From Vicinamibacterales bacterium (GTDB lineage: Bacteria; Acidobacteriota; Vicinamibacteria; Vicinamibacterales; JAMQPK01), in the NCBI GenBank assembly GCA_963782595.1, contig CAWAKJ010000005.1, positions 149,595-213,594 on the forward strand: a stretch of 64,000 nucleotides of DNA. Direction: 5' to 3'. The position numbers and the translations under genes were made by a program. The notes under the pieces are model-generated. The model saw nothing but the letters and a program-made list of their open reading frames with translations. It made no database searches and was not told where the DNA came from. This document shows, one piece after another, positions 1,660-28,417 of this stretch. The number at the start of each line of letters is the position of its first letter. Positions within the stretch are counted from its first letter, which is position 1.

Positions 1660-3378
1660 ATGACGAGATACAAGTCGTTTGCCGTGCTGATGCTCGCGGT
1701 GATCGCCGTCGTGTCGTTCCGTCTGCAGGCTCAGACGCCGCCGACGGCCGAGCGATTGCTCAATGCGACCAAGGAGCCACAGAACTGGCTGATGTACGGC
1801 GCCGACTATTTCAGCCAACGGTACAGCGGTCTCACGCAGATTACTCCCGCCAATGTGAAGAACCTCACGCTGGCCTGGGCGTATCAGTCGCCGAACGCGG
1901 GGAGCTGGCAGTCAACACCGCTCGTCGTCGACGGCATCATGTACTTGACGCAGCGGCCGAACGACGTGGTTGCGCTCGACGCGGTCACCGGTCGGGTCTT
2001 CTGGATCTATCGCTACAACAATTCCGCCGATCTGGCGGTTTGCTGCGGCTCCAACAATCGCGGTCTCGCGATTCTCGGCGACACGCTCTTCATGGGCACG
2101 CTCGACGCCCATCTGGTGGCCATCGACACCAGGAGCGGCATGCCGGTCTGGAAGACGAAGGTTGCGGAGAGCAAGGCGGGCTATTCGCTGACGGTCGCCC
2201 CGATGGCCGTCAAGGACAGAGTGATCGTCGGCGTCGGTGGAGGGGAGTGGGGCATTCGCGGGTTTGTGTCCGCCTACGACGCGCAGAACGGCAAGGAACT
2301 CTGGAAGTTCTATACCATCCCGGGCCCGGGCGAGCCGGGTCACGAAACCTGGGAACCGTGTCCCCCCAGCCCAGCCACCTACTGCGATCCGGAAGGGTGG
2401 AAACACGGCGGCGGATCGGTCTGGGTCACTGGGTCCTACGATCCGGTACTCGACCTGAACTACTGGGGCATCGGCAACGTGGGCCCTGACTACAATCACG
2501 AACAGCGCCCCGGCGACAACCTGTACACGGCATCGGTCGTGGCGCTGGATACGGCGACCGGCAAGCTGAAATGGCACTACCAGTTCACGCCGCACGACCG
2601 CTACGACTACGACTCCGTGCAGGTGCCGGTTCTGGCGGACATCACGTTTCAGGGCGCGCCCGTCAAAGCGATGCTGTGGGCCAATCGCAACGGCAACTTC
2701 TACGTGCTCGATCGGGCAACCGGAAAGTTCCTCCTCGGCAAGCCGTTCGTGAAAGTGAATTGGATGAGTGGCTTCGACGCCAACGGTAAACCGATTCAGA
2801 CGCCGCAGCCGCCTGGCATGCCGACCTATCCAGCCGTGCAGGGCGGCTCCAACTGGTATTCGCCCTCATACAGCCCGCGGACGAAGCTGATGTATGTGTC
2901 CTCGTGGGAAGATCAAGGCATGCTCTTTGGTGGCGTGCCGATCGTCTACCAGGAAGGCCGTGGCTTCGGCGGTGGAAACCTGTCGCCGTTTGTGCCCACC
3001 CCGGGCGCGCCGTCGCGCGGTATTCCCGGTGCGCCAGGTGTGCCGAACCTGCGTCGCGGTCCCATCAACAACTGGACCGATGCGGCTGGCCATGGGTCCG
3101 TGATCGCCTTCGATCCGAGCACGGGCGAGCCGAAATGGAAGTTCCTGATGACCGACGTCACCGACACAGGGATCGTGACGACGGCGACCGATTTGCTGTT
3201 CACCGGCGGACGCGAAGGCTACCTGCAGGCCCTCGATGCGCGGACGGGGACACAGCTCTGGAGGACGAATCTCGGAGCGCAGATGCTGAACAACCCGATT
3301 ACCTATGCAGTGAACGGCAGGCAGTACGTCTCCGCCATGGCTGGGCTGACGCTGTATACATTCGCCCTACCGAACTAG
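1660..3378 (+). CDS. PQQ-dependent alcohol dehydrogenase family protein (methanol/ethanol type) with D-x-D signature
   Basis: Signal peptide and Trp-rich propeller repeats. Vicinal Cys128-Cys129 (AVCCGSNNRG). Active-site block TPHDRYDYDS (D316-Y-D318). Confidence 0.9.
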   Translation: MTRYKSFAVLMLAVIAVVSFRLQAQTPPTAERLLNATKEPQNWLMYGADYFSQRYSGLTQITPANVKNLTLAWAYQSPNAGSWQSTPLVVDGIMYLTQRPNDVVALDAVTGRVFWIYRYNNSADLAVCCGSNNRGLAILGDTLFMGTLDAHLVAIDTRSGMPVWKTKVAESKAGYSLTVAPMAVKDRVIVGVGGGEWGIRGFVSAYDAQNGKELWKFYTIPGPGEPGHETWEPCPPSPATYCDPEGWKHGGGSVWVTGSYDPVLDLNYWGIGNVGPDYNHEQRPGDNLYTASVVALDTATGKLKWHYQFTPHDRYDYDSVQVPVLADITFQGAPVKAMLWANRNGNFYVLDRATGKFLLGKPFVKVNWMSGFDANGKPIQTPQPPGMPTYPAVQGGSNWYSPSYSPRTKLMYVSSWEDQGMLFGGVPIVYQEGRGFGGGNLSPFVPTPGAPSRGIPGAPGVPNLRRGPINNWTDAAGHGSVIAFDPSTGEPKWKFLMTDVTDTGIVTTATDLLFTGGREGYLQALDARTGTQLWRTNLGAQMLNNPITYAVNGRQYVSAMAGLTLYTFALPN

Positions 3379-3403
3379 TCTTCTTGGATGTAACTTATAG
3401 CGC

Positions 3404-4705
3404 ATGTTTCGCAGACACGTTCTCGCGATTGGCTTGACCCTCTTCGGCGTGTTCTATCCCTCGGTTGGAATGGGGATGGAGCGCGCTGCAATGGACCAGA
3501 TCCTCGCCCTTTCCAAGTCGCGTCCCGACTCGCCCGAGTTCCGCGAGGCACTCGTGAAACACCTGGGCGACGCGCCGATCAAGAGCGGCGAAGCGTACAA
3601 CTCGAACGGCCCGGATTTCATCTGGGCCGTTGAATCGGCCACGCAACCATCGATGATCCTCGACGATCAGCCAGCCGGCCCCATGCGGCGGATTGCCGGC
3701 AGCAACCTCTGGTTCTACGTTGCGCAGCTTCGCGTCGGCACCTCACATCGCTTTCACTACATCGTCAACGGCGCAAAGTTCGGCGGATCGTACGATGTGC
3801 CGGCGTACACGCCCAACTCCTACTCGCGGCCGGGCGTTCCTCAGGGCCGCCTGTCGGAGAAGCTGGTCCACACGAGCAAGCTGTACGGCGGCATGGAGAC
3901 CAACTACTGGATCTACGTGCCGGCGCAGTACGATGCGACGGTTCCGGCCGCGTTGATGGTGTGGCAGGACGGAGAGCGCTACATCACACGCAACGTTGAA
4001 GAGCTATGCCGCCTGTGCCCGAGCCTGTACCGCCTGCAGGAAGTCACCGACAACCTGATCCACGACAAGAAAATTCCGGTGATGATCCACGTGTTCGTCT
4101 CGCCGGGCACGCTGAACGGCAAGCCGCTGCGCTCGATCCTCTACGACACGGTGTCTGACAAGTACGGACAATTTCTCCTCGAGGAGCTGCTGCCAGAGGT
4201 GTCCGCGAAATACAACATCCGCAACGATGCCTACAGCCGGGCGATTCAGGGACAGTCGTCCGGTGGCATCGCCGCGTTCACCGTAGCCTTCAATCGTCCG
4301 GAGAGTTTCAGCCGCGTCTACACGGTCGTCGGCAGTTTCACTGCGCTGCAGTGGAAACCCGGCGAGCTCGACGGCGGCAATATTTATCCGTTCAAAGTGC
4401 GGCGCGAGCCCAAGCGCAACCTGCGCGTGTGGATGAACGATGGCTCGGAAGATCAGGAAGCCAACTCGGGAAGCTGGCCGCTGCAGAACATTCAGCTCGC
4501 GAATTCGTTGAAGCTGAAAGGCTACGACTTCCACTTCAGCTTCGGCGGCGGCTCTCATCATGCGGCGCTTGCCGCTTCAGAACTACCGGAATGCCTTACC
4601 TGGCTGTGGCGTGACTACGATCCAGCCAAGACTGCACAGACCTACGAGCAGAGCGCCGAGGAGCAATCGAAGCCACCGTTCCGTGTGCGCATCTACAACC
4701 GCTGA
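3404..4705 (+). CDS. Secreted esterase, enterochelin-esterase-like alpha/beta hydrolase
   Basis: Signal peptide, an N-terminal beta-rich module, then an esterase core with the GQSSGG nucleophile elbow (GxSxG). Confidence 0.7.
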   Translation: MFRRHVLAIGLTLFGVFYPSVGMGMERAAMDQILALSKSRPDSPEFREALVKHLGDAPIKSGEAYNSNGPDFIWAVESATQPSMILDDQPAGPMRRIAGSNLWFYVAQLRVGTSHRFHYIVNGAKFGGSYDVPAYTPNSYSRPGVPQGRLSEKLVHTSKLYGGMETNYWIYVPAQYDATVPAALMVWQDGERYITRNVEELCRLCPSLYRLQEVTDNLIHDKKIPVMIHVFVSPGTLNGKPLRSILYDTVSDKYGQFLLEELLPEVSAKYNIRNDAYSRAIQGQSSGGIAAFTVAFNRPESFSRVYTVVGSFTALQWKPGELDGGNIYPFKVRREPKRNLRVWMNDGSEDQEANSGSWPLQNIQLANSLKLKGYDFHFSFGGGSHHAALAASELPECLTWLWRDYDPAKTAQTYEQSAEEQSKPPFRVRIYNR

Positions 4706-4881: not shown

Positions 4882-7800
4882 ATGAGGAGGAGTTTGTTCG
4901 CGCGTGTCGCGATCGTGGGCGTGGTGTGTGCGTTGGCTGTTACGCAAACGGCGATGGCGCAGAACATCTACGGATCGCTCGTCGGCAACGTTACGGATTC
5001 CAGCGGCGCATCGATTCCGGGTGCAACCGTGACGGCGACGCATACAGGCACGAACCTGACCCGCGAGGTCGTGACGAACGAGACCGGCGCGTATACGATT
5101 CCGAACATCCCCTCCGGCACCTACCAGGTGGTCGTGGCCGTTCCGGGTTTCCAGAATTTCACCGTACGCGACATCGCCGTCACCAATCGTGACGTTCGCG
5201 TGGACGCCCGATTGAGTCTCGGGACGCTCGAAGAAGCGGTCACCGTTACGGCGACGGCGGCGATTCTCCAGACGGAAAATGCCGCGGTCCAGCACATCGC
5301 CAACAGCGAACAGTTGCAGACGCTGCCGACCAGCGGCCGCGCGTTTCAGAGTTTCATGACGCTGATGCCCGGTGTGGCCGATCCCAACTATCAGCAGTCG
5401 GGCGGCATCAACAATCCAGGCCGCACCATGTCGCTGACCATCAACGGTCAGCCGGCCACGAACACCGTCGTGCGGCTCGACGGGATCACGGCGACCAACC
5501 AGTTCTTCGAAAGCATCCAGAGCTACGGGCCCAGCCTCGAGGCCATCGAGACCGTCAACGTCGTCACGAGCAGCTTCGATGCCGACCAGGGCATGGCAGG
5601 TGCGGCGGCCGTGAACGTGCAGGTCAAAACGGGTACGAACAACTTCCGCGGCTCTGCGTTCGAATACGCAGTCGACGCGCGGATGCGCTCGCGAAACTAT
5701 TTCCTGCCGGCCGACCGCGACAAGGGCACCTCGAGCGTCAACGTGTTCGGCGGCACGATCGGTGGCCCGATCGTCAGGAATAAGCTGTTCTTCTTCTTCA
5801 GCGACGAGACGACGGTTCAGCGTACGTTCAACGGCAACGCCCAGGGCCAGACAGGCACGAGCGGATTCGTGTCGATTGCGCCAGCAGATCTGCGCCGGGG
5901 AGATTTCTCACAGTCGGGCACGCCCATTTACGACCCGCTGACGGGCAATCCGACGACGGCCGCGGGGCGTGTGCCGTTTGCCTATGCCAACTGCCCGGGC
6001 GTGACGACCCTGACCGATCCGCGCTTCGCCTCGTGCAACTTCATCCCGCAGAGCCGCATCAACCCGATTGCCGCGGCGATGTTGTCCAAGCTGGTGCTCC
6101 CCTCGCAGCCGGGTTACACGAACAACTATTTCGTGGTGAACGGGTACGACACGACCTACCACAAGATCGACGCGAAGATCACCTATAACCCCGGCCCCAG
6201 GCTGAACCTGAACGGCCGTCTCGGGTTCCTGCCGAGCTGGGAGCGGTCGTTGGGCATTCTGCCATCGGTGGATGGATCGCCGACCAACCCGTTGTCGCAG
6301 GGTCGCGTATGGGATTCGTTCGTGGACAGCCACTCGATCGGTGCGACGTCGATTCTGTCGCAGAGCTTCGTTGTTGACGGATCATTTGGCTACACCAAGC
6401 ACAACGTGCACGTGTTCCCGCCTGTGGACACGTGCTACGGCGATGTGTTCGGTCTAAGAAACGCGTGCCAGGCGCCGTACTCGCTCGACACGAACGTTCC
6501 GGACATGAACGTGCAGGGCTGGACGATGAACGGGCAGAGCCCGATTCGCGACTACGTCGATCCCCAGTGGCAGTTCGTTGCCAATGCCGGATGGACGAAG
6601 GGGTCGCACAACGTCAAGTTCGGGCTCGACTACATCATCCTCTTCCAGGATCACTACGAGACCCAGGCGCAGGCGTTTGCCTTCAACGGCGGTGTGACGA
6701 CGCTGAACGGGGCCGCCAACAACTTCAATAGATTCGCGTCGTTTCTGCTCGGCATGCCCTCGTCGAGAACCGCGCAGGTGATGACGCCGCTGCTTGGCGG
6801 GGATGCCTCCGGCGCGTCGCACCCGAGTACAGGAACGGCGAACGAGTTCCGCCCGAATACGCTGCGGAACAACAACGTCGGCACCTACATCCGGGATCAG
6901 TGGAACATCACGCCGAAGATCACGGCCTCGGTGGGCGTGCGGTGGGAGTACTACTCGCTGCCGCGCCGCTCAGACCACGGCATCGAGGTGTACGACTTCG
7001 CCGCCAACCGGCTGCTCATCTGTGATGTCGGTCCGAATTCGGAAAACTGCGACATCGAGGTCGAGAAGAATCTGTTCACGCCGAGGCTCGGCCTGGCTTA
7101 CCGGCCGACGGAGGACCTTGTCGTTCGCGTCGGCTATTCCCGCAACCCGCAAAGCAACAACCCGGGCCGGCAGCAGATGGTGCCGTCACAGTCGTTCCCA
7201 CAGACGATCGTCATTACTGAAGAGGCGCCGAACAACGTCACGGCCATCGGCAGCCTGAATGACGGATCGACGAGAGTGGTGCCGGCGGATCAGACGAGCG
7301 GCGTGTTGGTGCTGCCACGCGGCGCGGGCGTCAATACCTATCGAGACGAGTACGTGCGCGGCAAGATCTCGTCGTGGAACCTGAGCGTCCAGAAGGCGCT
7401 TGGTACGAGGATGAGTGCAACGTTCGCCTACGTTGCGAATCGCCAGAATGGCATGACGCGGAACCTGAACCTGAACTACGGCGTGCTCGGCGGCGGTTCG
7501 GCGAGCTTGCCGTTCAACCCGCTGGGCATTACGTCGGCGATGAACGTGTTCTCGCCAGAAGGCAAGGTGAAGTACGACTCGCTGCAGTTGAGCATGAACC
7601 GCCGGATGAGCGACGGCATGCAGTTCACCGTCGCGTACACCTATGCCAAGACGATCGACTGGTGGAGGACGGCCATCCCGCAGCCCGAGTACTGGTACCT
7701 GAACAAGGGTGAGACCGGGGCGCCGCACAGGCTGAACGCATCGCTGATTTACGAACTGCCGTTCGGTTCGGGACAGCGCTGGCTGAACAACGAAGGCGTG

Positions 7801-8325
7801 TTCGGCAAAGTCGTAGGCGGCTGGCAGTTGAATACCTTCTTCAGCTATGCGTCGGGGTCGCTGGTGACCGTGAGCGGCAGCACCAATCCGTTGAACGCGC
7901 CGAACGTCGGCACGCAGTTCGCCGACAAGGTGAAAGACGGAGCGGTCGAGATCTTCGGCGATGTCGGCCCCACAGCGCAGTACTTCGACGTGAGCGCGTA
8001 TCGCCCGGTACCGGCCGGAGAGCTTCGATTCGGCAATTCCGGCCATGGTTCGTGGAGAGGCCCGAGTGCGCCGAACGTCGATATGAGCGTGTTCCGTGTC
8101 TTCCGCATCGGCCAGACCAGGACGCTTCAGATTCGCGCCGAGGTCTTCAACGTCTCGAACACGCCGCACTTCAGCAACCCGGCCGCGAATATCTCCAACG
8201 TCGTGTTCGCCGCCAACGGCTCCATCACCAATCTGGGCGGAGTGGGAAGCATTACGTCGACCGATCGCACGGGCCGTCAGTACGACGAGCGCGAGTGGCG
8301 GTTTGGCGCGAGATTCGGATTCTGA
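4882..8325 (+). CDS. TonB-dependent receptor with N-terminal carboxypeptidase-regulatory-like domain
   Basis: AGGAGG RBS and signal peptide. GNVTDSSGASIPGATVT...GTYQV Ig-like module, long barrel, terminal Phe (RFGARFGF). Confidence 0.9.
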   Translation: MRRSLFARVAIVGVVCALAVTQTAMAQNIYGSLVGNVTDSSGASIPGATVTATHTGTNLTREVVTNETGAYTIPNIPSGTYQVVVAVPGFQNFTVRDIAVTNRDVRVDARLSLGTLEEAVTVTATAAILQTENAAVQHIANSEQLQTLPTSGRAFQSFMTLMPGVADPNYQQSGGINNPGRTMSLTINGQPATNTVVRLDGITATNQFFESIQSYGPSLEAIETVNVVTSSFDADQGMAGAAAVNVQVKTGTNNFRGSAFEYAVDARMRSRNYFLPADRDKGTSSVNVFGGTIGGPIVRNKLFFFFSDETTVQRTFNGNAQGQTGTSGFVSIAPADLRRGDFSQSGTPIYDPLTGNPTTAAGRVPFAYANCPGVTTLTDPRFASCNFIPQSRINPIAAAMLSKLVLPSQPGYTNNYFVVNGYDTTYHKIDAKITYNPGPRLNLNGRLGFLPSWERSLGILPSVDGSPTNPLSQGRVWDSFVDSHSIGATSILSQSFVVDGSFGYTKHNVHVFPPVDTCYGDVFGLRNACQAPYSLDTNVPDMNVQGWTMNGQSPIRDYVDPQWQFVANAGWTKGSHNVKFGLDYIILFQDHYETQAQAFAFNGGVTTLNGAANNFNRFASFLLGMPSSRTAQVMTPLLGGDASGASHPSTGTANEFRPNTLRNNNVGTYIRDQWNITPKITASVGVRWEYYSLPRRSDHGIEVYDFAANRLLICDVGPNSENCDIEVEKNLFTPRLGLAYRPTEDLVVRVGYSRNPQSNNPGRQQMVPSQSFPQTIVITEEAPNNVTAIGSLNDGSTRVVPADQTSGVLVLPRGAGVNTYRDEYVRGKISSWNLSVQKALGTRMSATFAYVANRQNGMTRNLNLNYGVLGGGSASLPFNPLGITSAMNVFSPEGKVKYDSLQLSMNRRMSDGMQFTVAYTYAKTIDWWRTAIPQPEYWYLNKGETGAPHRLNASLIYELPFGSGQRWLNNEGVFGKVVGGWQLNTFFSYASGSLVTVSGSTNPLNAPNVGTQFADKVKDGAVEIFGDVGPTAQYFDVSAYRPVPAGELRFGNSGHGSWRGPSAPNVDMSVFRVFRIGQTRTLQIRAEVFNVSNTPHFSNPAANISNVVFAANGSITNLGGVGSITSTDRTGRQYDEREWRFGARFGF

Positions 8326-8332
8326 CACTCTT

Positions 8333-8371
8333 GTAGGGCGGGTCTTGAACTGCAAGACCCGCCCTACTTTT
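8333..8371 (+). terminator. REP-like palindrome GTAGGGCGGGTCTTG/CAAGACCCGCCCTAC plus TTTT
   Basis: 15-bp perfect stem 8333-8347/8353-8367 followed by TTTT. Sits between two receptor genes. Copies at 11682 and 34494. Confidence 0.6.
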
Positions 8372-8390
8372 CGGTCTTTAAGGAGGGGAA

Positions 8391-11300
8391 ATGACGGTAC
8401 GCATGCTCGTTGTCGTTGTGACGGCTCTCGTCACATTCGGCTCACCGGTTTTCGCACAGCTCCAATCGGGCCGCATCGTCGGGACGGTATTCGACACGCA
8501 GAAGGCCGGTATCCCTGGGGCAACCATTACGGTCACCAACATGGCCACTAATGTCTCCAGGACGGCGGTCACCGATGCGGAAGGCAACTACGTTGTCACG
8601 CCGATCGATCCGGGTACATACAACGTGAGCGCCGAGATGTCGGGTTTCCAGACCACACGGCGAGAGGGCCTCATCATGACCGTCGGGCAGGCGGCCCGAG
8701 TGGAGCTGACGCTCAATCTCGGCACGCTGTCAACGGAAGTGCAGGTGACGGCCGAAACGCCGCTGCTCAACACCGAGTCGGCCACGTTGAGCGAGGTCAT
8801 CACGAACGAGCAGATCGTCGATCTGCCCCTCAACGGCCGCGGCTTTCACGAGCTGGCGCGACTGACATCGGGCGTGGCGCTGCTGCCGCCAACCGGCAAC
8901 ACGCAGCCCGTCCGGCCCGAGGTCGTCAACGGCAACGTCATCGGCGGTGTCGCCGGATCGCAAACCCGGTTCCTCCTCGACGGTGTGGACATCACGGAAG
9001 AGCATCAGGGGGGCACCTGGATTCAGACCTCGGTGGACGCGCTTCAGGAGTTCAGCGTTTCGCAGAACGCGTATTCGGCCGAGTTCCATGGCGCAGGCGC
9101 CACGTTCAACGTGACGACCAAGTCGGGCGGCAACGCATTTCACGGCAGCCTGTTCGAGTTCGCACGCAATGACAAGTTCGATTCGAAGAACTTCTTCGCA
9201 GTAAATAAGGAGAAGCTCGAGCGCAATCAGTTCGGCGGCACGCTCGGCGGCCCGGTGATGATCCCCGGCATGTACGACGGCCGGAACAAGACCTTCTTCT
9301 TCGCGAGCTACGAGGGACACCGCCGCCAGCAAGGCGTGGTTGACGTCAGTAACGTGCCGTCGGCGGCGCAACGGTCGGGAGATTTCAGCGGCCTTGCGGC
9401 GATTTTCGACCCGTTGACGACGACGACCGGGACCGTCACGCGCACACAGTTTGCCGACAACAGGATTCCCACGAATCGTATTTCGCCGCAAGCCCAGTTC
9501 TTCATGCAGTACATCCCGTTGCCGAACGCAGCCGGCAATACGTACGTCTCGAACCCGATTACGTCGTTCAATCAGAACCAGGTGACGTTGCGCCTGGATC
9601 AGGAAATCAACTCTCAGCATCGCTTCTTCACGCGCTACAGCCGGCACGTGAACGCGGAAGACAGACAGGATCGGTGGGACACGCTCGGTGCGACTCGGCT
9701 CGAGGGCCCGGCGTACAACCTGGCCATGTCGCTGACGTCGAACTTCGGGTCGTCACTGGTCCACGAAGTTCGCTTCAGCCGGATGTACGGCGAGTACCGT
9801 TCGACGGCCTATTTCCAGGGCCAGGGCGTCAGCCTCGTCCAACAGCAGGCCGGGGTCAGAGGCCTCGCGGGTATTCAGGATCCCAACATCGCCAGCCTGC
9901 CGGCCTTCAGTTTTTCCGGCTACACAGGTTTTTCGGGCAATGCGGGGGACGGCCGTCCAAAATGGCAGGACCGAGGGGAATACGAGCTCACCGATAACCT
10001 CACCTGGATCAAAGGAAGGCACATCCTGAAGTTCGGAGGCAGGATGTACCACCGGAACATTCTGTTTACCGATGCGAGAAGCCACAACGGGGTGTTCAAC
10101 TATACCGGTGTCATGACACAGCGTCCGGGGAATACCGCGGGCACGGGGGTCTCGTTTGCCGACTTCCTGCTCGGATACCCCGCCAGCGTGACCCGATCGA
10201 ACCCCGCGACGTGGTGGGGTGGATCCGGCACGTACTGGCATGGCTTCATCCAGGATGACTTCCGGCTGACGAACAACCTGACCGTCAATCTGGGATTCCG
10301 CTACGAATACACGCCGTGGTTGACGCCGTACCGCAACCAGGGCGCCGTCTTCGATCCGACACGTGCCAAGTCGATCATCGTCTCGAGCGAGAACAACCAG
10401 ATCGATCTCGGTTCGCAGGCGTTGGCGGATATCGGGTACCAGTTGTTTGGAGACTTGATCCAGACCAGCAGTGAAGCGGGCGTTCCGCTTCAGCTGACCG
10501 CGAACGACAACAAGCAGTTGGCGCCCAGGATTGGTTTTGCGTACCGCCTCGGCGATCGCACGGTCGTTCGTGGTGGTTACGGGATGTTCTACGAAGCCGA
10601 GGGCACGAGCGGCCGGCTGAATTTCCACTTCCTGCCGTTCAGTCTGAGCGAAGCGGTGAACGCCACGACCAACGTCGTGCCCAACCGCACGACGGCGGAC
10701 TTCTTCCTCGGCGTGCCGTTTGGCGCGTCGGTTGGAAGCGTTGGCTGGAACCCGCTCACGCTCGATGCGGAGTTCGGATTCGATCAGCGCTGGAACTTCG
10801 GTGTTCAGCGGGAAATCGCCAGCCGGATGAGCCTCGAAGTGAATTACGTGGGGACGAAGGGCAACAACCAGCAGGAGGCGGAGCCGATCAACCTTCCTCC
10901 CGCGGCCGCAGGAAACATACAGCTGCGCCGGCCGTATCCGCGCTTCGGCAACATGAACATTCACAGCCAGGCACGGTCGACCGAGTATCACGCGCTGCAG
11001 ACCAAGCTCCAGAAGCGGACGTCGGGCGGGCTGTGGTACCTCGTCTCGTATTCGTACACCAGCACCCAGACAACGCTGCCGGCGCCGGGCATCGGCGGCA
11101 ACTTCACGTACGACACAGGGCCGGCGGGCTTCGATATTCCACATCTGTTGGCGATGAGCTTCGGTGCCGAGCTGCCGTTCGGCAGCGGCAAGCGGTTCCT
11201 CAGCAACGCGGGCACGCTCGCCAACGGGTTGCTCGGCGGATGGCAGGCGCAGAGCATCGTGAACTACCGCAGCGGTCTTCCGTTTACGCCGAGCGTGTCG

Positions 11301-14229: not shown

Positions 14230-15303
14230 ATGAGGAACGCTTGTCTCGCAGGCGCGGCAATCATCTCTGTGATCGGCGGCATCACCTTCGCGCAAGGCCC
14301 CTCGGCCCTTCGGCCCTTCGAGAGCCTCAGGGTCGTCCCGAGCAGCGTCGAGGGACGGCAGGCTCAGGGCCGTCTCGAGCAGAGTCGAGAGACGGCACCG
14401 CGCGCGTCCGCCGGACCGATTGCCACGCAGCGGCCACTCGCCCAGCGCATCGCTCATTACGATCCGGCGAAAAACCGGCTCTCGCCGTCAGTGCACGCGG
14501 GCGCCGGTCCGCTGAGTTACGGTTCGATGCTCGGCGAAGACGATACCGACACCAACCTCTGGTTCCTGCACCGCGGCTTCATTCATCCCAAAGGCGGCAT
14601 CGGCGGTCATTTCCACAATAACTGCGAAGAGATGTTCGTCATTCTCGACGGAGAAGCGCAGTTCACGATCGATGGCCGTACCTCGCTGCTGAAGGGGCCC
14701 GCCGGCGCACCGGTGCGCATGGGTCACTGGCACGCGATCTACAACCCGACCGACAAGCCTGTCGAGTGGATGAACATCAACGTGACGGCCATCAAGGGAT
14801 GGTACGACGCATTCGATCTCTCCGACTCGCGTGTGAACGCGCCGCTCGATCCGGTTCCGCCGTTCATGACCATGCGGCTAGACCGCACGTTGCTGCGGCC
14901 GTTCAACGCCGTTCAAGGCGGTAAAGGCGAAGTGCAGGCACGGCGCGCCCTGGATGTGCCGGTGTTCCTCGGGCCGTGGGGATATGTCGATCACCTGTTG
15001 ATTCCGGCCGGGTCGTCCATCGGGCCGAGCACCAATGCCGAGATCGGCGGGTTCTACTACGTGCTGGCCGGCGAGGGAACCGTGACGATCGGCTCCGAAA
15101 CGGCGGCGATCAAAGCGCACGACGCGGTGCCGTTGAGGTTCAACGAGACCAAATCGTTTGCCGCGTCGGCTAATGCGCCTCTGGAGTTGATGGCGATCGG
15201 TGTCGTCAAGGACGCTGCCCGCCGGTTCGAGATCGTCGGCCGCAACCCCTTCGTGCCGGCTCGCGGAACGCCGCCGGCGCGCGGCGCGGCGCCGCCGCGC
15301 TAG
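14230..15303 (+). CDS. Periplasmic bicupin protein
   Basis: Signal peptide. Cupin motif 1 [17 protein letters not shown] and motif 2 [14 protein letters not shown]. The second cupin half lacks the His ligands. Paralogue at 20704-21664. Confidence 0.8.
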
Positions 15304-15955: not shown

Positions 15956-15973
15956 GGAAGAGGGAGGGGAGCA

Positions 15974-20707: not shown

Positions 20708-21664
20708 TCATGACGAAACTGCCGCTGGCATGTGCCACCATCATCTCGCTCGTTGGCGGAGCGGCCCTCGCTCAGAGAGGCACGCCTGCCGCACCGGCCC
20801 CGCACACGCTACCGCTCGCGCAGCGGATCTCGCACTACGATCCGGCGAAAAACCGGAACGTCGCCGTCGGTGCACGCCGGAGCCGGCCCCATGTTCATCG
20901 GATCGATGTTCGAGAACGAGCACACCGATACGAACCTGTGGTTCCTGCATCGCGGAAATATTCCGCCCAAAGCCGGTATCGGCGCCCACTTTCACAACAA
21001 CTGCGAGGAGATGTTCATCATCCTCGACGGGGAAGCCCAGTTCACGATTGACGGCCGCACCAGCGTCCTGAAGGGGCCCGCTGGCGCACCCGTGAGAATG
21101 GGCCACTCGCACGCGATCTACAACCACACGGATAGAACGGTGGAGTGGATGAACATCAACGTGACGGCCATCAAGGGATGGTACGACGCGTTCGATCTCG
21201 GCGACTCGCGTGCCAATGCGCCGCTCGATCCAGTACCGCCGTTCATGACGCTGCGGCTCGACCGCACGCTGCTGCGGCCGGTCAACGCCCTGCACGGCGG
21301 TAAGGGCGAGGTGCAGGTACGGCGCGCGTTGGATGCGCAGGTGTTTCTCGGGCCGTGGGGATATGTCGATCACCTGCTGATTCCGGCCGGGTCGTCCACC
21401 GGACCGAGCACCGATGCGGAAATCGGCGGGTTCTATTACGTGCTGGCCGGCGAGGGTACCGTCAAGGTTGGCTCGGAGACGGCTTCGATCAAGGCGCATG
21501 ACGGCGTGCCCTTGAATTTCAACCAGGCCATCTCATTTGAAGCGACGGGCGCCGTGCCCCTCGAACTGATGGCGATCGGCGTGGTCAAGGATGCCGCCAG
21601 GCGTTTCCAGATTGTCGGACGCAACCCCTACCAGCGGGCGCGCGGCGCTGCGCCCGCCCGATAG
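20704..21664 (+). pseudogene. Bicupin paralogue with a +1 frameshift near 20859-20862
   Basis: Signal peptide through [15 protein letters not shown] is in frame 1; [10 protein letters not shown] onward is in frame 2. Alignment to 14461-14490 shows one extra nt (AACG vs CTC). Length is 961 nt. The ATG overlaps the dehydrogenase stop (ATGA). Confidence 0.6.
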
Positions 21665-21685: not shown

Positions 21686-21740
21686 AGCAGATGGCAGATG
21701 GCAGACGGTACTCTCTGCGATCATCCATCTGCCCTCTGCC
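21686..21740. repeat. GGCAGAT heptamer array plus inverted partner (hairpin between convergent genes)
   Basis: AGCAGATGGCAGATGGCAGACGG (21686-21708) faces CCATCTGCCCTCTGCC (21725-21740). The right arm overlaps the last codons of the MFS gene. Confidence 0.75.
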
Positions 21741-23112
21741 TTGACACGCCCATAGAGCCAACAGCCACCGGCTGTGGCTCCTGACCCTTCGCTGGCATTT
21801 CTCCCGCCGGGCGCGTAATCCGCAGCGAGAGCACCAGAGCGCTCCCGATCAGCCCGCACGTCACGAGGTACATGAGACCGGCCGTGTAGCCGCCCGTGAG
21901 ATCGGCGAGATAGCCGATCAAGTAGGGTCCTGCGAAGCCGCCGAGATTTCCCGTCGCGTTGATGAGCGCGATGCTGGCGGCTGCGGCGGGCCCACTGAGA
22001 AAAATAGTCGGGAGTGTCCAGAAGGGCGACGGAAACGAGTACAACGCCATGGTGGCGGCCGAGAACGCGGTGATGGCGAGCACGAGGTGATTGCCGGAGA
22101 CGATGCTCAACGACAGGGCAACGCCGACCGCGAACAACGGGATCGCGGCATGCCACCTTCGCTCGCGCGTCTTATCAGAGTGCCACGCCGTGATGAGCAT
22201 CATCGGGATAGCGGCAAGCCAGGGAATGCCCGAAATCAGAATCACCTGCGTGGTGCTGAGCCCCGAAATGCGCCGCACGATCGTCGGTAACCACGAGCTC
22301 AGGCCGACGCTATTAGTGATGTAGCAGAAGCACGCGAGGGCCAGGATGATCACCTGAGGATGCCGCAGCGCCTCGAGCGTGCTCAGCTTTTTCGCCGATT
22401 TCTTTCTCTCCTTTTCGCGCTCGAGCTCGCCGGTGATCCACTGGCGCTCGGCTTCGGGCAGCCAGCGCGCGTCGCTCGGCCGATCGGTCAGGTAGAAAAA
22501 CGCGACCACTCCGAAGACGACCGTTGGAAGACCTTCGAGGATGAGCAGCCATCGCCAGCCGTTCCATCCGAGCCAGTCGATGCGGATCAAGGCGGCGGCG
22601 ATCGCGGCCCCCACCATGTTCGACGTGGGAATCGCCATCATGAACATGGCGACGGCTTTGGCTCGATCCTCATATCGAAACCAGTGCGTCAGATAAACGA
22701 GGACGCCGGGGAAGAAGCCGGCCTGGGCGATACCCAGGAAAAAGCGGACCCAGTAGAACTCGCCGGCGGTGTCGACGAGGCCGCACAGCGCAGCAAGTGC
22801 GCCCCACACAATCAGGCTGAGCGTGATGAAATTTCTTGCGCTCCACAATTCGGTCAAGAGCGTCGAAGGAATCTGCAGGAGAAAATAGCCGATGAAGAAA
22901 ATTCCTGCGCCGAACCCGAAGACGGTGTTCGAGAACCCGAGGTCCTCCCTCATCTGCAGGGCGGCATAGCCGACATTGACCCGGTTCATGTAGTTGAACA
23001 CGTACAAAACGAAGAGGAACGGCATGAGTCGCCAGATGATGCGCCGGCGCGCCCGTTCGCCGATATCCCTCGACTCTGCTCGAGACAGCTCGCTGTCGAT
23101 GGCTGTGTTCAT
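21721..23112 (-). CDS. MFS transporter (anion:cation symporter / sugar-acid type)
   Basis: 12-TM pattern. N-terminal RRIIWRLMPFLFVLYVFNYMNRVNVGYA resembles hexuronate/galactonate-type permeases. Confidence 0.85.
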   Translation of the reverse strand: MNTAIDSELSRAESRDIGERARRRIIWRLMPFLFVLYVFNYMNRVNVGYAALQMREDLGFSNTVFGFGAGIFFIGYFLLQIPSTLLTELWSARNFITLSLIVWGALAALCGLVDTAGEFYWVRFFLGIAQAGFFPGVLVYLTHWFRYEDRAKAVAMFMMAIPTSNMVGAAIAAALIRIDWLGWNGWRWLLILEGLPTVVFGVVAFFYLTDRPSDARWLPEAERQWITGELEREKERKKSAKKLSTLEALRHPQVIILALACFCYITNSVGLSSWLPTIVRRISGLSTTQVILISGIPWLAAIPMMLITAWHSDKTRERRWHAAIPLFAVGVALSLSIVSGNHLVLAITAFSAATMALYSFPSPFWTLPTIFLSGPAAAASIALINATGNLGGFAGPYLIGYLADLTGGYTAGLMYLVTCGLIGSALVLSLRITRPAGEMPAKGQEPQPVAVGSMGVSRQRADG

Positions 23113-24264: not shown

Positions 24265-25368
24265 ATGAAGCGACGATACTTCACGTTCGCGCTCGGCCTC
24301 GTCTGGCTCGTATCAACGTTTTCGTCGAACGCGCAGACTCCTGCGCCGGCGCCCGGAACAACCGTGGAGAAGCTCTATATCTCACTGGAGACCACCGATA
24401 CGGTCGCTGTCGTCGATCTGAAGGCGTTCAAGCAACTCAAGACGCTCAAAGTGGGCAACCATCCGCACGGGCAGGCGTCGCCGGCCTCGCAGGACAAACT
24501 GTATGTCGCCGCGGAAATCGGCGGAACCGTGACGCTCATCGATACGATCAAGGACGAAGTCATCAAGACCTTCGACGTAGGCTTTGGCGTCGAGCCGCAG
24601 AACGGCGCCATTACGCCGGACGGCCGCTTCCTCTATCAACCGTCGTATGCCGGCTACTACCAGGTGTTCGACACGCAGAAAGAGGCGATCATCGAGTACA
24701 TCCACACGCTCGGCATCGGGCACAACACGGTGATGGCGCCAGACGGACGATTCGTGTATCTGTTACCGATCGCCGGCGGGCCGGGACACTTTGCGCGCGA
24801 GTCGCTGGGGCTGCCCAGAACCCAACCGAAGGAAGTGACGGTCGTCGACGCCCGGACACACAAGGTGGCCGGCACGATCCCGGTCGGCACGGGACCGCGG
24901 CCGGGAACCATCAGCCCCGATGGCCGGCGGCTGTACATGAACGTCGACGACTTGATGGGCTTTCTCATCATCGACACGGCCGCCCGCAAGGTCATCGCGA
25001 AAGCGCAGTACACGCTGACGCCCGATGAACAAGCCGTCAGAAGCCGATCGCATGGCATTGCTGTGGCGAACAACGGCAGGGAGGTCTGGAGCAACGACGT
25101 CGTGCACAACCTGACGTTTGTATTCGACGTCACTGGCGATACGCCGAAGCAGATTGCGCGCTTCCCGGTTGGCCGCCAGCCGTACTGGATTATGCCGTCC
25201 AAAGACAGCAAGACCGTCTACGTCACGTGCCCCAGCAGCGACGAACTGATCGCGTTCGACGTCGATTCGAAGAAAGAGAAGGGGCGTATTCAGTTCCCCA
25301 AGGGATCGCATCCGACGCGCATGCTCACGGTGGCGGCACCGGCCGCTCCGCTGAGAACGTCCCGGTGA
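24265..25368 (+). CDS. Secreted YVTN-type beta-propeller repeat protein
   Basis: GAGGAGG RBS and signal peptide. Repeated motifs of about 40 aa (LYVA.. / G.V.VID... / P.G.A.SPDG..LY). Confidence 0.65.
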   Translation: MKRRYFTFALGLVWLVSTFSSNAQTPAPAPGTTVEKLYISLETTDTVAVVDLKAFKQLKTLKVGNHPHGQASPASQDKLYVAAEIGGTVTLIDTIKDEVIKTFDVGFGVEPQNGAITPDGRFLYQPSYAGYYQVFDTQKEAIIEYIHTLGIGHNTVMAPDGRFVYLLPIAGGPGHFARESLGLPRTQPKEVTVVDARTHKVAGTIPVGTGPRPGTISPDGRRLYMNVDDLMGFLIIDTAARKVIAKAQYTLTPDEQAVRSRSHGIAVANNGREVWSNDVVHNLTFVFDVTGDTPKQIARFPVGRQPYWIMPSKDSKTVYVTCPSSDELIAFDVDSKKEKGRIQFPKGSHPTRMLTVAAPAAPLRTSR

Positions 25369-25369
25369 T

Positions 25370-25888
25370 ATGAACCGACGTCTCTTCCTCGCGACCGGGC
25401 TCGCGCTCGCTGGCTTCGGCCGGCGCGTGTGGGCCCAGTTCGCGGGCGCTCCGATCCGGTACGCCGGGCTCACGCGGCCGGTCAGGATTCCGCTGCGGGA
25501 TGTGGCGACACCATGGCAGCCGGTGGCGTTCGTTGCCGAGGCGATGGCTCCGGCAACGGCGACTGCCCAGCCGAGGCGGGTCCTCATCAATGGCGTGCTC
25601 TTCAGAACCGCAACGAATCTGAGCGCGCTCTGCGTGACCTGTCCGCACGAGCAGTGTCAGGTCGATCTCGTGACCGAGCCGGATCGGCTCAGTCGCATGA
25701 CAGGGGGGACAGCCACTGGTCCCCTGTTCGAGTGCGGCTGCCACTTGAGCATGTTCGACGCAACCGCAGACGGCGTTCGAATCTCCGGCGAAGCGCCGCG
25801 AGGTCTCTATCGCTTTCGTATCGCGGGCACGACGCCGGATGCGGTCGAGATCACAGAAATTGAAGATGTGGCGCTTTCTGAGGTGTAA
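25370..25888 (+). CDS. Tat-exported Rieske [2Fe-2S] protein
   Basis: Twin-arginine signal MNRRLFLATGLA. Rieske boxes CPHEQC (CxHxxC) and CGCHLS (CxCH). Starts 2 nt after the propeller gene. Confidence 0.8.
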   Translation: MNRRLFLATGLALAGFGRRVWAQFAGAPIRYAGLTRPVRIPLRDVATPWQPVAFVAEAMAPATATAQPRRVLINGVLFRTATNLSALCVTCPHEQCQVDLVTEPDRLSRMTGGTATGPLFECGCHLSMFDATADGVRISGEAPRGLYRFRIAGTTPDAVEITEIEDVALSEV

Positions 25889-25937: not shown

Positions 25938-26762
25938 ATGCGCCGGATTCTATTGCTTTGCTTCTGCCTGGGCGTGGTGACGGTCGCCCCAGCGGCGCAA
26001 GCGCCGCAAAATCCCGCCCTGGCGGGGACGGGGGCGGCGGCCGAACCCACGGCGCCAATTCCCGAGACCAACCCGTTTTCATCCGCGGCCGACATTCAGG
26101 CCGGTGAAGCGCTGTTTCAAACGCACTGCTCGTACTGCCACGGCTCGTTCGGCGAGGGCGGACGAGGCGCGGATCTTACAGCCGGCATCTATCGGCGCGG
26201 CGGCCGCGATCCGGAGCTGTACGCGTCGATTCGCAACGGCATTCCCGGCAGCGAGATGGCGCCGGTTCGCGTGACAGACGACGAAGTGTGGAAGATGGTG
26301 GCGTTCGTGAAACGGCTCGGATCGCAGGGGCTGCTGGAAAAGGCGCCGGGCGATGCGACGGCCGGGCGACTTCTGTATCAGAAGCGGGGATGCGCGACGT
26401 GCCATAGCATCGGGCGCGACGGGGGCAGCCTTGGACCGGACCTCTCCGACATCGGACGACGTCGCGGTCTGACGTTCCTGACCGAATCGCTGGTCACTCC
26501 CGAATCGGATGTGCCGATCAGATATCGCGGCCTGCAGGTCGTGCTGAAGTCGGGTCAGACGGTCACAGGTGTTCGCCTGAATCGCGACGACCTCTCCATT
26601 CAACTGCGTGATGCACGCGACAACCTGCGATCCTTTCTGATGGACAACGTTAAGGAAGTCCGGTACGACAAGCCCTCGTTGATGCCGTCCTACAGCACGA
26701 TGGAGCGCAAGGACCTGCAAGATCTGGTGGCGTACCTGAACTCCTTGAAGGGGGAGCAATGA
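25938..26762 (+). CDS. Periplasmic dihaem c-type cytochrome (paralogue of 864-1655)
   Basis: Signal peptide, CSYCH and CATCH motifs, distal SLMPSY motif. The stop overlaps the next ATG (ATGA). Confidence 0.85.
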   Translation: MRRILLLCFCLGVVTVAPAAQAPQNPALAGTGAAAEPTAPIPETNPFSSAADIQAGEALFQTHCSYCHGSFGEGGRGADLTAGIYRRGGRDPELYASIRNGIPGSEMAPVRVTDDEVWKMVAFVKRLGSQGLLEKAPGDATAGRLLYQKRGCATCHSIGRDGGSLGPDLSDIGRRRGLTFLTESLVTPESDVPIRYRGLQVVLKSGQTVTGVRLNRDDLSIQLRDARDNLRSFLMDNVKEVRYDKPSLMPSYSTMERKDLQDLVAYLNSLKGEQ

Positions 26763-28417
26763 TCTCGAAGCGAGCCGGTGCATGGACGGTTGCGGCCATT
26801 CTGGTCACTACGGTGTCCTGGACGCTCAGCGGCCAGAGCGGGCCACTGACATCCGAGCGGCTGTTGCGGGCGGATCAGGAGCCAGGAAACTGGCTCATGT
26901 ATTCCGGTACGTACAACGGATGGCGTTTCAGCAGGCTGAACCAGATCACGTCGCAGAATGTGAAAAACCTGCGCGTGAAATGGCTCTTCCAGGGACGCCA
27001 CCTCGAGAAGTTCGAAACGACGCCGCTCGTCGTCGATGGGATCATGTACCTGACGCGCCCCGAGAATGCGATTTATGCGCTCGATGCGGTCACCGGGCGG
27101 CAGCTGTGGATGTACGAACATCGCAATCCCGAGCGGACGTTCAACTGCTGTGGCCGCGTGAATCGCGGCCTGGCCATGCTCGGCACGACGCTGTTCATGA
27201 ACACGCTCGACATGCATGTGATTGCCATCGACGCGAAGTCGGGACGCGAGATCTGGAAGACGGTGATGTTCGATCACACCGCCGCGGGTGGCTACGCCGC
27301 CCCGGGGGCGCCCTTGATCGTGAAAGACAAGCTGATTGTCGGCATGGCGGGCGGCGAGCGCGGCGTGAGCGGATTCCTCGACGCGTACGACCCGAAGACC
27401 GGGCAGCGGCTGTGGCGCTTCAACACGATTCCGCAGCCCGGCGAGCCGAACTTCGGCACCTGGGCCGGCGATTCGTGGAAGACCGGCGGTGCGTCTACGT
27501 GGAATACGGGGTCATACGATCCGGACACGAACACGCTCTTCTGGGGCACCAGCAACCCGTGGCCCGACTATTACGACGACATGCGCGCGGGCGACAATTT
27601 GTATTCGGCCTCTGTGCTCGCCCTCGATCCGGACACCGGAAAGCTGAAGTGGTACTACCAGTTCACGCCTCACGATGTGCACGACTGGGACGCGACGCAG
27701 AATCCGGTGCTCGTCGACGCGGAATATCTGGGACAAACGCGCAAGGTGCTGGCCTGGCCAAACCGGAACGGGTTCTTCTATCTGATCGATCGCACCAACG
27801 GAAAATTTCTCTCGGCCAAGGCGTTCGTGAAGCAGACGTGGAACGACGGGTTCGACTTCGAGCAGAACGGGCGGCCGATCGTCAGGCCGGGCAACGAGCC
27901 GACGCCGGAAGGCAACGACAAGGTGTGGCCCGGCATCGACGGCGGGTCGAACTGGATGGCGCACAGCTACAGTCCGCTCACGAAGCTGCTCTATGTCTTC
28001 GCACGGGAAGAACGCCGTGTGTACACGAAGAACGAAGTGCGCCACCCCACGACGGAACCGAACGCCGAGCCGCCGAATCGGATGCAGGCGTTCAACCGCG
28101 GGCGCGGTCCCAGATTCGCGCCCGAAGAAAGCTGGGGGAAAGCGATTGCCATCGATCCGCCCACCGGCAATATCAAGTGGGAGCATCGCGTGGTGTCCCC
28201 TCCCTGGGGAGGGTTGATGAGCACCGCCGGCAACGTCGTGTTCGGCGGCACGATGGAAGGTGTCATTTTCGCGCTGGACGCGACCACGGGCGAACGTCTG
28301 TGGACGTTCGCCAGCAACGGCGCGGTCTATGGTTCCGCGATTAGCTACCTTGCCGACGGGAAGCAGTTTGTCTCGATCCCGGCCGGCGACCTCCTGGTGA
28401 CCTTCGGGCTCGACTGA
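26759..28417 (+). CDS. PQQ-dependent alcohol dehydrogenase family protein with D-x-D signature
   Basis: Signal peptide, vicinal Cys (FNCCGRVNRG), TPHDVHDWDATQ block (D309-W-D311). Confidence 0.9.
   Translation: MISKRAGAWTVAAILVTTVSWTLSGQSGPLTSERLLRADQEPGNWLMYSGTYNGWRFSRLNQITSQNVKNLRVKWLFQGRHLEKFETTPLVVDGIMYLTRPENAIYALDAVTGRQLWMYEHRNPERTFNCCGRVNRGLAMLGTTLFMNTLDMHVIAIDAKSGREIWKTVMFDHTAAGGYAAPGAPLIVKDKLIVGMAGGERGVSGFLDAYDPKTGQRLWRFNTIPQPGEPNFGTWAGDSWKTGGASTWNTGSYDPDTNTLFWGTSNPWPDYYDDMRAGDNLYSASVLALDPDTGKLKWYYQFTPHDVHDWDATQNPVLVDAEYLGQTRKVLAWPNRNGFFYLIDRTNGKFLSAKAFVKQTWNDGFDFEQNGRPIVRPGNEPTPEGNDKVWPGIDGGSNWMAHSYSPLTKLLYVFAREERRVYTKNEVRHPTTEPNAEPPNRMQAFNRGRGPRFAPEESWGKAIAIDPPTGNIKWEHRVVSPPWGGLMSTAGNVVFGGTMEGVIFALDATTGERLWTFASNGAVYGSAISYLADGKQFVSIPAGDLLVTFGLD

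Follow-up and report, generated by a model that had tools for sequence, protein, structure and literature searches.

The window, by which is meant the whole 64,000-nucleotide stretch of DNA analysed, encodes three PQQ-dependent dehydrogenases (W1, W2 and W3) that are likely to be PQQ-scavenging quinoproteins of the lanthanide type, drawn from a lineage-specific expansion and located in an ordinary stretch of the genome. They are predicted to be functional, Sec-exported periplasmic enzymes of two uncharacterised clades of the methanol/ethanol family, with alcohols, aldehydes or sugars as candidate substrates. The host is a soil Vicinamibacterales bacterium, with a genome of 6.3 Mb that is 100% complete. 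The genes concerned are listed below (coordinates within the window).

2-775, strand not given: TonB-type barrel, partial
864..1655, + strand: di-haem cytochrome c, 263 aa (PF00034/PF13442, TIGR02603 haem-binding domain, two CxxCH), presumed electron acceptor of W1
1660..3378, + strand: W1, PQQ dehydrogenase, 572 aa, signal peptide (TIGR03075, 523 bits)
3404..4705, + strand: esterase, 433 aa (profile match to PF00756)
4882..11672, + strand: two TonB-type outer-membrane barrels, 1147 and 1093 aa (4882-8325 and 8391-11672), with N-terminal CarboxypepD_reg (PF25183, 534 and 745 bits; PF13620); the former also weakly matches Plug and TonB_dep_Rec
11794..12666, + strand: IclR-family regulator (PF01614, PF09339)
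12769..14148, + strand: hypothetical protein, 459 aa, whose place between the IclR and W2 genes is conserved in close relatives (synteny)
14230..15303, + strand: bicupin A, 357 aa (PF07883, two stretches)
15974..18946, + strand: TonB-type barrel, 990 aa (PF25183, 99.6 bits; PF13620)
18947..20707, + strand: W2, PQQ dehydrogenase without Cys-Cys, 586 aa, with signal peptide, five-stranded beta linker domain (residues 38-84) and propeller
20732..21664, + strand: bicupin B, 310 aa (PF07883), directly downstream of W2 orthologues (synteny)
21721..23112, - strand: MFS transporter (PF07690), adjoining the W2-bicupin pair in close relatives (synteny)
24265..25888, + strand: feature preceding the cytochrome c gene of W3
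25938..26762, + strand: di-haem cytochrome c, 274 aa (PF13442, PF00034, TIGR02603, two CxxCH), presumed electron acceptor of W3
26759..28417, + strand: W3, PQQ dehydrogenase, 552 aa, signal peptide (TIGR03075, 535 bits)
29644..32289, + strand: TonB-type barrel, 881 aa (PF25183, 88 bits; PF13620)

Family assignment and active sites

Judged by sequence, W1, W2 and W3 are full-length, eight-bladed quinoproteins of the methanol/ethanol family, with a complete set of metal and PQQ ligands. All three align over their full length to solved quinoproteins (E-values of 1e-86 to 1e-98), the best PDB matches of W1 being 1kv9 and PedH, at about 1e-98; the alignments of W3 likewise reach about 1e-98. The curated cut-off of the family profile TIGR03075 (480.05 bits) is passed by W1 (523.2 bits) and W3 (534.9 bits), with W2 (461.3 bits) just under it. 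An AF2 model of W2 (pLDDT 85.2, pTM 0.87) predicts an eight-bladed beta-propeller, with TM-scores of 0.78-0.84 against PedH, XoxF, quinohaemoprotein ADHs and MxaF; the modelled fold superposes most closely on the lanthanide-dependent PedH (TM 0.81/0.84, rmsd 2.1 Å).

Comparison with the solved enzymes gave the following site residues.

W1: Cys128-Cys129 ring, Glu196, Asn273, Asp316-Tyr-Asp318, Arg134, Arg343, Trp255
W2: Ala175-Ala176, Glu243, Asn309, Asp352-Trp-Asp354, Arg181, Arg379, Trp291
W3: Cys130-Cys131 ring, Glu200, Asn266, Asp309-Trp-Asp311, Arg136, Arg336, Trp248

Glu, Asn, two Asp, both Arg and Trp are, thus, present in each protein. PQQ would be held over the stacking Trp and by the two Arg, those of the NRG and RNG motifs; the metal would be bound by Glu and Asn together with the catalytic Asp and, at position +2, the additional Asp. 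The earlier note had assigned a lanthanide-type D-x-D signature to all three genes, and this is borne out to the letter: translation yields FTPHDRYDYD (W1), FTPHNVWDWD (W2) and FTPHDVHDWD (W3), the names D316-Y-D318, D352-W-D354 and D309-W-D311 stand, and the numbering is exact (D316 = nt 2605-2607, D352 = nt 20000-20002, D309 = nt 27683-27685). In the alignment to six solved enzymes, the first Asp coincides with the catalytic/metal Asp, and the second with the Asp that marks the lanthanide enzymes PedH, XoxF2 and XoxF5. At +2, the three Ca quinohaemoproteins carry Thr, and the second Arg, which W1-W3 share with PedH and XoxF, is Lys in them.

The best NCBIfam match of W2 is TIGR04528, 'acido-empty-quinoprotein group A', which likewise comprises acidobacterial paralogs from genomes without PQQ synthesis; the host, a Vicinamibacterales acidobacterium without PQQ biosynthesis, is of this kind. 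Membership was rejected, as W2 (518.8 bits), W1 (484.7 bits) and W3 (470.0 bits) all score below the cut-off of 650 bits. So do the three W2 relatives that were scored, namely paralogs and a Solibacter homologue, at 515-535 bits. By these scores, W1-W3 represent sister groups of TIGR04528, not members.

Genomic context, native metal and PQQ supply

The genome encodes 47 PQQ propellers (32 ADH-type and 15 GDH-like), and W1-W3 would be part of this lineage-specific expansion. The D-x-D motif occurs in 46 of them; because all 32 ADH-type and 14 of the 15 GDH-like paralogs carry it, three motifs out of three in the window are no more than the background rate. It is also found in 27 of 27 W1/W3-like homologues from relatives in the class, at least 13 of which have a di-haem cytochrome upstream. 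Most members of 14 of the 17 PQQ-dehydrogenase families carry D-x-D (PMC11996626), and survey-level predictions give dozens of eight-bladed D-x-D PQQ dehydrogenases, including GDH-like ones, per acidobacterial genome, many of these genomes being devoid of PQQ synthesis (PMC11996626; bioRxiv 10.64898/2026.07.10.737718). Large repertoires of this type in Acidobacteria are, then, already published, and W1-W3 add members to them.

This bears on the dedicated rare-earth locus that the earlier note had proposed. A 27-kb oxidation locus, whose TonB receptors and esterase would import and release a lanthanophore for W1-W3, is quite improbable, although its parts were correctly recognised. Five TonB-type barrels and the PF00756 esterase (3404-4705) are indeed interspersed in the window, and the stop codon of the barrel gene 15974..18946 abuts the ATG of W2. 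Of the 47 quinoprotein genes, 15 have a barrel nearby, roughly double the 6.7 expected by chance, and the barrel density of the contig is twice that of the remaining contigs. Nevertheless, the genome has about 80 such barrels, two thirds of the paralogs have none nearby, and the barrel beside W2 is missing from most close relatives (among these, it occurs only here and in locus L059). By type (CarboxypepD_reg/OMP_b-brl_4), the barrels differ from the lanthanide transporters known to date, which are PqqU-like. The esterase shows weak similarity to enterochelin esterase (45.6 bits, where the cut-off is 222) and resembles feruloyl esterases too, no chelator-biosynthesis gene was found within the window, and the IclR regulator, bicupins and MFS transporter suggest ordinary catabolism of a substrate. 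W1, W2 and W3 also lie in three separate modules. The window is best read as an unremarkable part of a genome rich in quinoprotein genes and TonB-type barrels, and not as a dedicated rare-earth locus.

The native metal of W1-W3 is probably a light lanthanide, since the predicted site geometry is that used by lanthanide enzymes. The earlier designation as lanthanide-type enzymes holds insofar as the proteins are intact, exported and matched to lanthanide enzymes in their ligands, but all three lie outside the clades in which the D-x-D rule has been put to the test. In a quick LG+G4 tree with six reference anchors only, these solved enzymes, both lanthanide- and calcium-dependent, form one clade (SH-aLRT 100) that excludes W1-W3; W1 and W3 form a separate clade (95) and W2 another (98). 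All three, thus, fall outside the XoxF and ExaF/PedH clades, and calling them lanthanide-dependent is an extrapolation of the rule beyond its validated range, as neither XoxF nor PedH nor any other solved enzyme clusters with them. It is conceivable, if rather unlikely, that they use Ca2+ or are metal-promiscuous, the second Asp being ancestral instead of a lanthanide determinant. E. coli m-GDH, characterised with Ca/Mg, carries D466-M-D468 in the same alignment columns, the spread of the motif over 46 of 47 paralogs, GDH-like ones included, fits an ancestral state, and no known lanthanide-uptake gene was found in the genome. Yet the tested D-x-D enzymes of the methanol/ethanol family (XoxF1, 2, 4, 5, ExaF and PedH) are all lanthanide-dependent, with Ala, Ser or Thr in the Ca enzymes; PedH and XoxF also agree with W1-W3 in the remaining three ligands and in both Arg, the second of which is Lys in the Ca quinohaemoproteins; and PedH is the best match of the W2 model.

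As the earlier note had observed, the window holds no pqq genes, and none was found elsewhere in the complete genome: PqqC and PqqD are absent, and PqqB and PqqE have only weak look-alikes. PqqC is also absent from two genomes of the same genus, while the same search detected it in 9 of 151 genomes of the phylum. Neither does the genome contain a PqqU/LutH-like transporter, the PqqU search giving matches of 197-243 bits in relatives; the absence of a PqqU-type importer from this genus was not found described in the literature searched. As genome and genus lack both pqqB-E and such an importer, the holoenzymes would depend on PQQ scavenged from neighbours. That the propellers are instead 'empty quinoproteins', having no PQQ and serving another cofactor or a binding role, is very improbable. 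In its favour are the strong similarity to TIGR04528 and the lack of pqqB-E and PqqU from all three genomes examined in the genus, but no variation occurs at the catalytic and PQQ-contacting residues in 81 W2-family sequences or among the paralogs, a constancy difficult to account for if PQQ were not bound, and W1 and W3 have kept dedicated cytochrome c partners. Moreover, it is well established that non-producers scavenge PQQ, which is abundant in soil (PMC12124388), and a sister family of the same order has PqqC, with one of its genomes encoding 36 methanol/ethanol-family paralogs, including the W1 type.

Electron transfer and known enzymes

The W1 module reads cytochrome c-W1-esterase and the W3 module propeller-Rieske-cytochrome c-W3. 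The di-haem cytochrome c gene of W1 stops 4 nt before the W1 start, and the one paired with W3 shares its last 4 nt with the beginning of the W3 gene. The Cys-Cys ring is missing from 21 of the 32 ADH-type paralogs, and each of the 11 that have it lies within 3 kb of a same-strand cytochrome c gene, a correlation of which no description was found in the literature searched. Because of this coupling, W1 and W3 probably hand their electrons to the di-haem cytochrome c whose gene lies immediately upstream in the same operon.

Among known systems, PedH/ExaF, the lanthanide-dependent type I PQQ ethanol dehydrogenases (PDB 6ZCW; about 33% identity), share with W1-W3 the periplasmic eight-bladed propeller, the same metal ligands (Glu, Asn, Asp-x-Asp) and, around PQQ, two arginines and a stacking Trp, and with W1 and W3 the Cys-Cys ring and a separate cytochrome c. 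However, they are not orthologous, as PedH groups with XoxF and the quinohaemoproteins; W2 differs further by its lack of the ring and its extra N-terminal beta domain. The partners of W1 and W3, being di-haem proteins of 263 and 274 aa, also differ from PedF-type c550 (TIGR04494, 16-24 bits against a cut-off of 122).

The lanthanide methanol dehydrogenases XoxF1-5 (PDB 4MAE, 6DAM, 6OC5), of which XoxF3 is common in Acidobacteria (PMC10875860), have the same D-x-D and ligand set, as well as the ring and adjoining c-type cytochrome of W1 and W3, whereas W1-W3 lie outside their clade, at about 26-31% identity. No XoxJ was recognised, and nothing points to methanol as a substrate.

The top PDB sequence matches of W1-W3, at about 34% identity, are type II quinohaemoprotein ADHs (1KV9, 1KB0, 1YIQ), which are Ca-dependent (Thr at +2, Lys for the second Arg) and have a Cys-Cys ring and a C-terminal haem domain. 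This identity was rejected for W1-W3, which have neither a C-terminal cytochrome c domain nor any CxxCH.

The W2 family and its module

W2 would be part of a conserved IclR-hypothetical-W2-bicupin-MFS catabolic module, the order here being IclR-hypothetical-bicupin-barrel-W2-bicupin. The IclR regulator is kept upstream of W2 orthologues (loci L049-L060 and L074), and no fewer than 14 further loci have genes resembling bicupin A beside a member of the W2 family. Bicupin B is weakly similar to quercetin 2,3-dioxygenase and oxalate decarboxylase; the hypothetical protein has no match in Pfam, NCBIfam or PDB.

In the W2 family, as in the type II enzymes, propeller and cytochrome c domain form one polypeptide, but the haem domain is N-terminal and Cys-Cys is replaced by Ala-Ala across the 81 sequences. 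The N-terminal CxxCH occurs in 64 of these and in four paralogs of W2's clade (with PF13442 in paralog C1:390390), and is absent from W2 itself. In the literature searched, no description was found of such an N-terminal-haem family or a haem-less derivative. W2 probably descends from quinohaemoproteins that lacked the Cys-Cys ring and carried a mono-haem cytochrome c domain at the N-terminus, the haem domain having been lost in W2 and its close orthologues, with the linker and whole active site retained. D352, D354, N309, R181, R379 and W291 are invariant throughout the family, down to about 61% identity. The position of Glu243 is occupied by Glu in 27 and by Asp in 54 of the 81 members, and Asp as first metal ligand constitutes a site variant absent from solved enzymes.

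The D-x-D signature in W1, W2 and W3

W1, W2 and W3, the three PQQ dehydrogenases of the window, are probably lanthanide-type quinoproteins and belong to a kind that has already been published. For Acidobacteria, as many as 70 lanthanide-PQQ dehydrogenases have been predicted in a single genome, the D-x-D motif has been reported for most members of 14 out of 17 families (PMC11996626), XoxF3 systems are found across Acidobacteria (PMC10875860), and a 2026 preprint distinguishes 15 clades of eight-bladed lanthanide-type enzymes, the GDH-like ones all being D-x-D (bioRxiv 10.64898/2026.07.10.737718). If the assignment is true, the phylum, one of the most abundant in soil, would provide further rare-earth enzymes outside methylotrophy, supporting lanthanide-PQQ chemistry as a mainstream route of periplasmic alcohol/sugar oxidation by soil bacteria. 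The value added here is modest: a correlation between the Cys-Cys ring and cytochromes, an N-terminal-haem family of which one derivative is haem-less, and the reliance of a whole genus on external PQQ in spite of lacking the known importer.

Translation of the stretches quoted in the earlier note reproduced the open reading frames and the D-x-D positions, with exact residue and nucleotide numbering.

Genes and site residues of the three dehydrogenases (joint alignment of W1-W3, six solved anchors and E. coli Gcd)
1660-3378, + strand: W1, 572 aa; motif stretch FTPHDRYDYD; C128-C129, R134, E196, W255, N273, D316, D318, R343
18947-20707, + strand: W2, 586 aa; motif stretch FTPHNVWDWD; A175-A176, R181, E243, W291, N309, D352, D354, R379
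26759-28417, + strand: W3, 552 aa; motif stretch FTPHDVHDWD; C130-C131, R136, E200, W248, N266, D309, D311, R336

Each protein opens with a hydrophobic signal sequence, carries the PF01011 quinoprotein propeller domain (282-289 bits by profile search), and aligns over its full length with solved enzymes (E 1e-86 to 1e-98), among them the quinohaemoprotein ADHs 1KV9, 1KB0, and 1YIQ, lanthanide-dependent PedH (6ZCW), and XoxF (4MAE, 6DAM). W1 (523 bits) and W3 (535) exceed the cut-off of 480 for TIGR03075, the methanol/ethanol family, and W2 (461) falls slightly under it. Membership of TIGR04528 ('acido-empty-quinoprotein') was discarded, its cut-off being missed by W1-W3, two paralogs, and a Solibacter homologue. 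W1 shares 41% identity with W2 and 48% with W3, so the three are old paralogs rather than recent duplicates.

As a sanity check, the joint alignment correctly picked out Asp466 and Lys493, the textbook residues of E. coli m-GDH, and the proposed rule held among the anchors, the residue at +2 from the catalytic Asp being Asp in PedH, XoxF2, and XoxF5, and Thr in the three Ca enzymes. At the first metal-ligand position (W2 residue 243), Asp is seen in none of the six anchors. An AlphaFold2 model was built for W2 from a 53-sequence alignment (pLDDT 85.2, pTM 0.87), and its best structural match is PedH (TM 0.81/0.84, rmsd 2.1 A), followed by XoxF.

By phylogeny, none of W1-W3 is orthologous to XoxF, ExaF, or PedH. 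The maximum likelihood tree (IQ-TREE, LG+G4, quick search, SH-aLRT, rooted on the GDH-like group) comprised the 47 paralogs of the host genome and the six solved anchors, the anchor sequences being taken from HMMER alignments, with MxaF and ExaA absent. XoxF2, XoxF5, PedH, and the three Ca quinohaemoproteins form a single clade (support 100), which includes nine host paralogs; in this six-anchor quick tree, W1 and W3 fall in a separate eight-member clade (SH-aLRT 95), and W2 in a seven-member clade (SH-aLRT 98). All three being outside the solved-enzyme clade, the D-x-D rule is therefore applied beyond the clade of its validation. The same alignment columns read D466-M-D468 in E. coli m-GDH, an enzyme characterised with Ca/Mg. 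D-x-D is necessary for lanthanide use but may not be sufficient, and lanthanide use by W1-W3 is rated as more likely than not. As the clades seen here have no characterised member, W1 or W3 together with its cytochrome makes a good first biochemical target for the rule outside the XoxF/PedH clade.

Inside the solved-enzyme clade, four host paralogs, at C3:701562, C1:1115003 (-), C2:1295955 (-), and C2:169589, form a clade of their own, with the top TIGR03075 scores of the genome (534-561 bits). They are devoid of the Cys-Cys ring (VLLHPTSRG), read YNPNESWDWDEVS, and share a conserved C-terminal tail ending in ...PEVPEGGAIWVFAL.

Cytochrome partners and the W2 family

Di-haem cytochrome c genes lie directly upstream of W1 (263 aa, gap of 4 nt) and W3 (274 aa, overlap of 4 nt), and the two cytochromes are paralogous. 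Of the 32 ADH-type paralogs in the genome, just 11 have the Cys-Cys ring, a vicinal disulfide over PQQ, and all 11 have a same-strand c-type cytochrome gene within 3 kb. In one tandem array (C2:697092-702089), three D-W-D dehydrogenases with the ring appear to have one upstream di-haem cytochrome c gene in common. The role of the ring in electron transfer has long been debated, and its perfect tracking with a separate cytochrome c in the host genome bears on this question. A sample of 60 genomes of the class supplied W1/W3-like homologues (28 loci, with flanks of about 1.5 kb): D-x-D is found in 27/27, and at least 13 of the 27 are directly preceded by a di-haem cytochrome gene, even within flanks of just that length. 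Another host member of the W1/W3 clade (C7:177897-179454; RPCCGRVNRG, D-H-D), with a di-haem cytochrome c directly upstream, is broken by a single in-frame TGA, after which the second piece continues; the gene could be a pseudogene, or the TGA could be a recoded stop or an error of sequencing.

W2 has Ala-Ala in place of the Cys-Cys ring, and no cytochrome gene was found among its neighbours. Across 81 members of its family (61-92% identity), D352, D354, N309, R181, R379, and W291 are invariant, and the Cys-Cys position is likewise Ala-Ala (78/81 and 70/81). The first metal ligand, Glu in W2, is Asp in 54 members and Glu in 27, a variation that could alter metal preference.

The N-terminal region of W2 points to its origin. 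Residues 38-84 form a five-stranded beta domain without a Pfam match (model and profile search). A CxxCH motif occurs in the N-terminal extension of 64/81 family members and of four host paralogs of the W2 clade. In one of these paralogs, C1:390390, the extension is a PF13442 cytochrome c domain (residues 25-95, 43 bits), and the linker behind it shows clear homology to W2 residues 36-88. The ancestor of W2 and of its close orthologues in Vicinamibacterales was therefore a quinohaemoprotein with an N-terminal haem, and the haem domain has since been lost. In the literature, a search for bacterial quinohaemoproteins with an N-terminal cytochrome led to fungal six-bladed enzymes only.

Public relatives of W2 at 83-92% identity come from soil MAGs labelled Vicinamibacterales, an order of Acidobacteriota, and close relatives conserve the gene order IclR-hypothetical-W2-bicupin-MFS. 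No relative of the 459-aa hypothetical protein was found in Pfam, NCBIfam, or the PDB, and bicupin B gives weak matches only, to quercetin dioxygenase and oxalate decarboxylase. In the window, an insertion of bicupin A and a gene for a 990-aa TonB-type outer-membrane barrel (14230-18946) separates the hypothetical gene from W2, and among the loci compared (L049-L060 and L074, from other genomes) L059 alone has it too; in the others, the hypothetical gene is directly followed by W2. A conserved barrel-W2 unit was thus rejected, the coupling being present in only one of about 12 close orthologous loci, and the TAA-ATG junction between barrel and W2 is recent, because the upstream pair is shared with L059 only. 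Two loci carry unexpected labels: L051, on a contig titled 'uncultured Bifidobacteriaceae bacterium', holds an 85%-identical W2 orthologue whose gene neighbourhood is that of Vicinamibacterales, pointing to a mislabelled bin, and L100, on a 'Dehalococcoidia' MAG contig, holds a 59%-identical homologue.

Genome-wide repertoire, cofactor supply and the rare-earth locus

The host genome (6.31 Mb, 8 contigs, scored 100% complete) encodes 47 PQQ-type propellers. Propeller matches number 23 and 30 in two genomes of the same genus and 36 in one from a sister family, against 0-12 in most others of the order; the expansion is lineage-specific. In a common alignment, D-x-D is carried by 32/32 ADH-type and 14/15 GDH-like host paralogs, so the presence of the motif in all of W1-W3 is no more than the background rate.

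The absence of pqq genes noted for the window holds for the genome. Profile searches gave zero matches to PqqC and PqqD, and PqqB (41 bits, cut-off 245) and PqqE (52 bits, cut-off 381) gave weak, generic look-alikes. Across 151 genomes of the phylum, the PqqC search scored above the cut-off nine times, twice within the order of the host, which validates the search; PqqC is likewise missing from both other genomes of the genus. Without synthesis genes, PQQ must therefore be scavenged, as is documented for many non-producers (PMC12124388), and the whole genus relies on community-supplied PQQ while lacking the known importer. With E. coli PqqU as query, the host genome gave only fragmentary matches (up to 34 bits); four genomes of the order were matched over the full length, at 197-243 bits. 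The search for lanthanide uptake covered the TonB component, through this PqqU query; because the lanthanide TonB transporters described to date resemble PqqU, they appear absent too.

The earlier note had taken the three enzymes within 27 kb to suggest a rare-earth-dependent periplasmic oxidation locus. The lanthanide-type enzymes of that reading stand as probable; the dedicated locus does not, D-x-D being at its background rate and the five window barrels (CarboxypepD_reg + OMP_b-brl_4 type) belonging to a family of about 80 in the genome. The neighbouring esterase is only weakly similar to enterochelin esterases (45.6 bits, cut-off 222), which does not support a role as a chelator esterase. 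Barrels occur within 5 kb of 15 of the 47 quinoprotein genes, versus 6.7 +/- 2.4 expected (P about 0.0015), and contig C5, which holds the window at 149595-213594, has twice the mean barrel density, with 2.45 barrels per 100 kb versus about 1 elsewhere. The association is real but partial, and agrees better with loci for substrate import than with a rare-earth island.

By a further reading, rated as improbable, the genus, with about 47 PQQ propellers and neither PQQ synthesis nor a PqqU/LutH-type transporter, would have an undescribed import route of its own for PQQ and/or lanthanides. A candidate importer would be one of the CarboxypepD_reg TonB-type barrels, which show a roughly two-fold co-location with quinoprotein genes and of which one adjoins W2. 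In the same reading, the W2 family would form a new architectural class of quinohaemoproteins (N-terminal haem, no Cys-Cys ring), and W2, its haem-less derivative, would have a new electron acceptor. On contig C5, a segment of about 120 kb (~60-182 kb, covering window positions 1-32289) is unusually dense in barrels, with at least 10, and contains six PQQ propellers.
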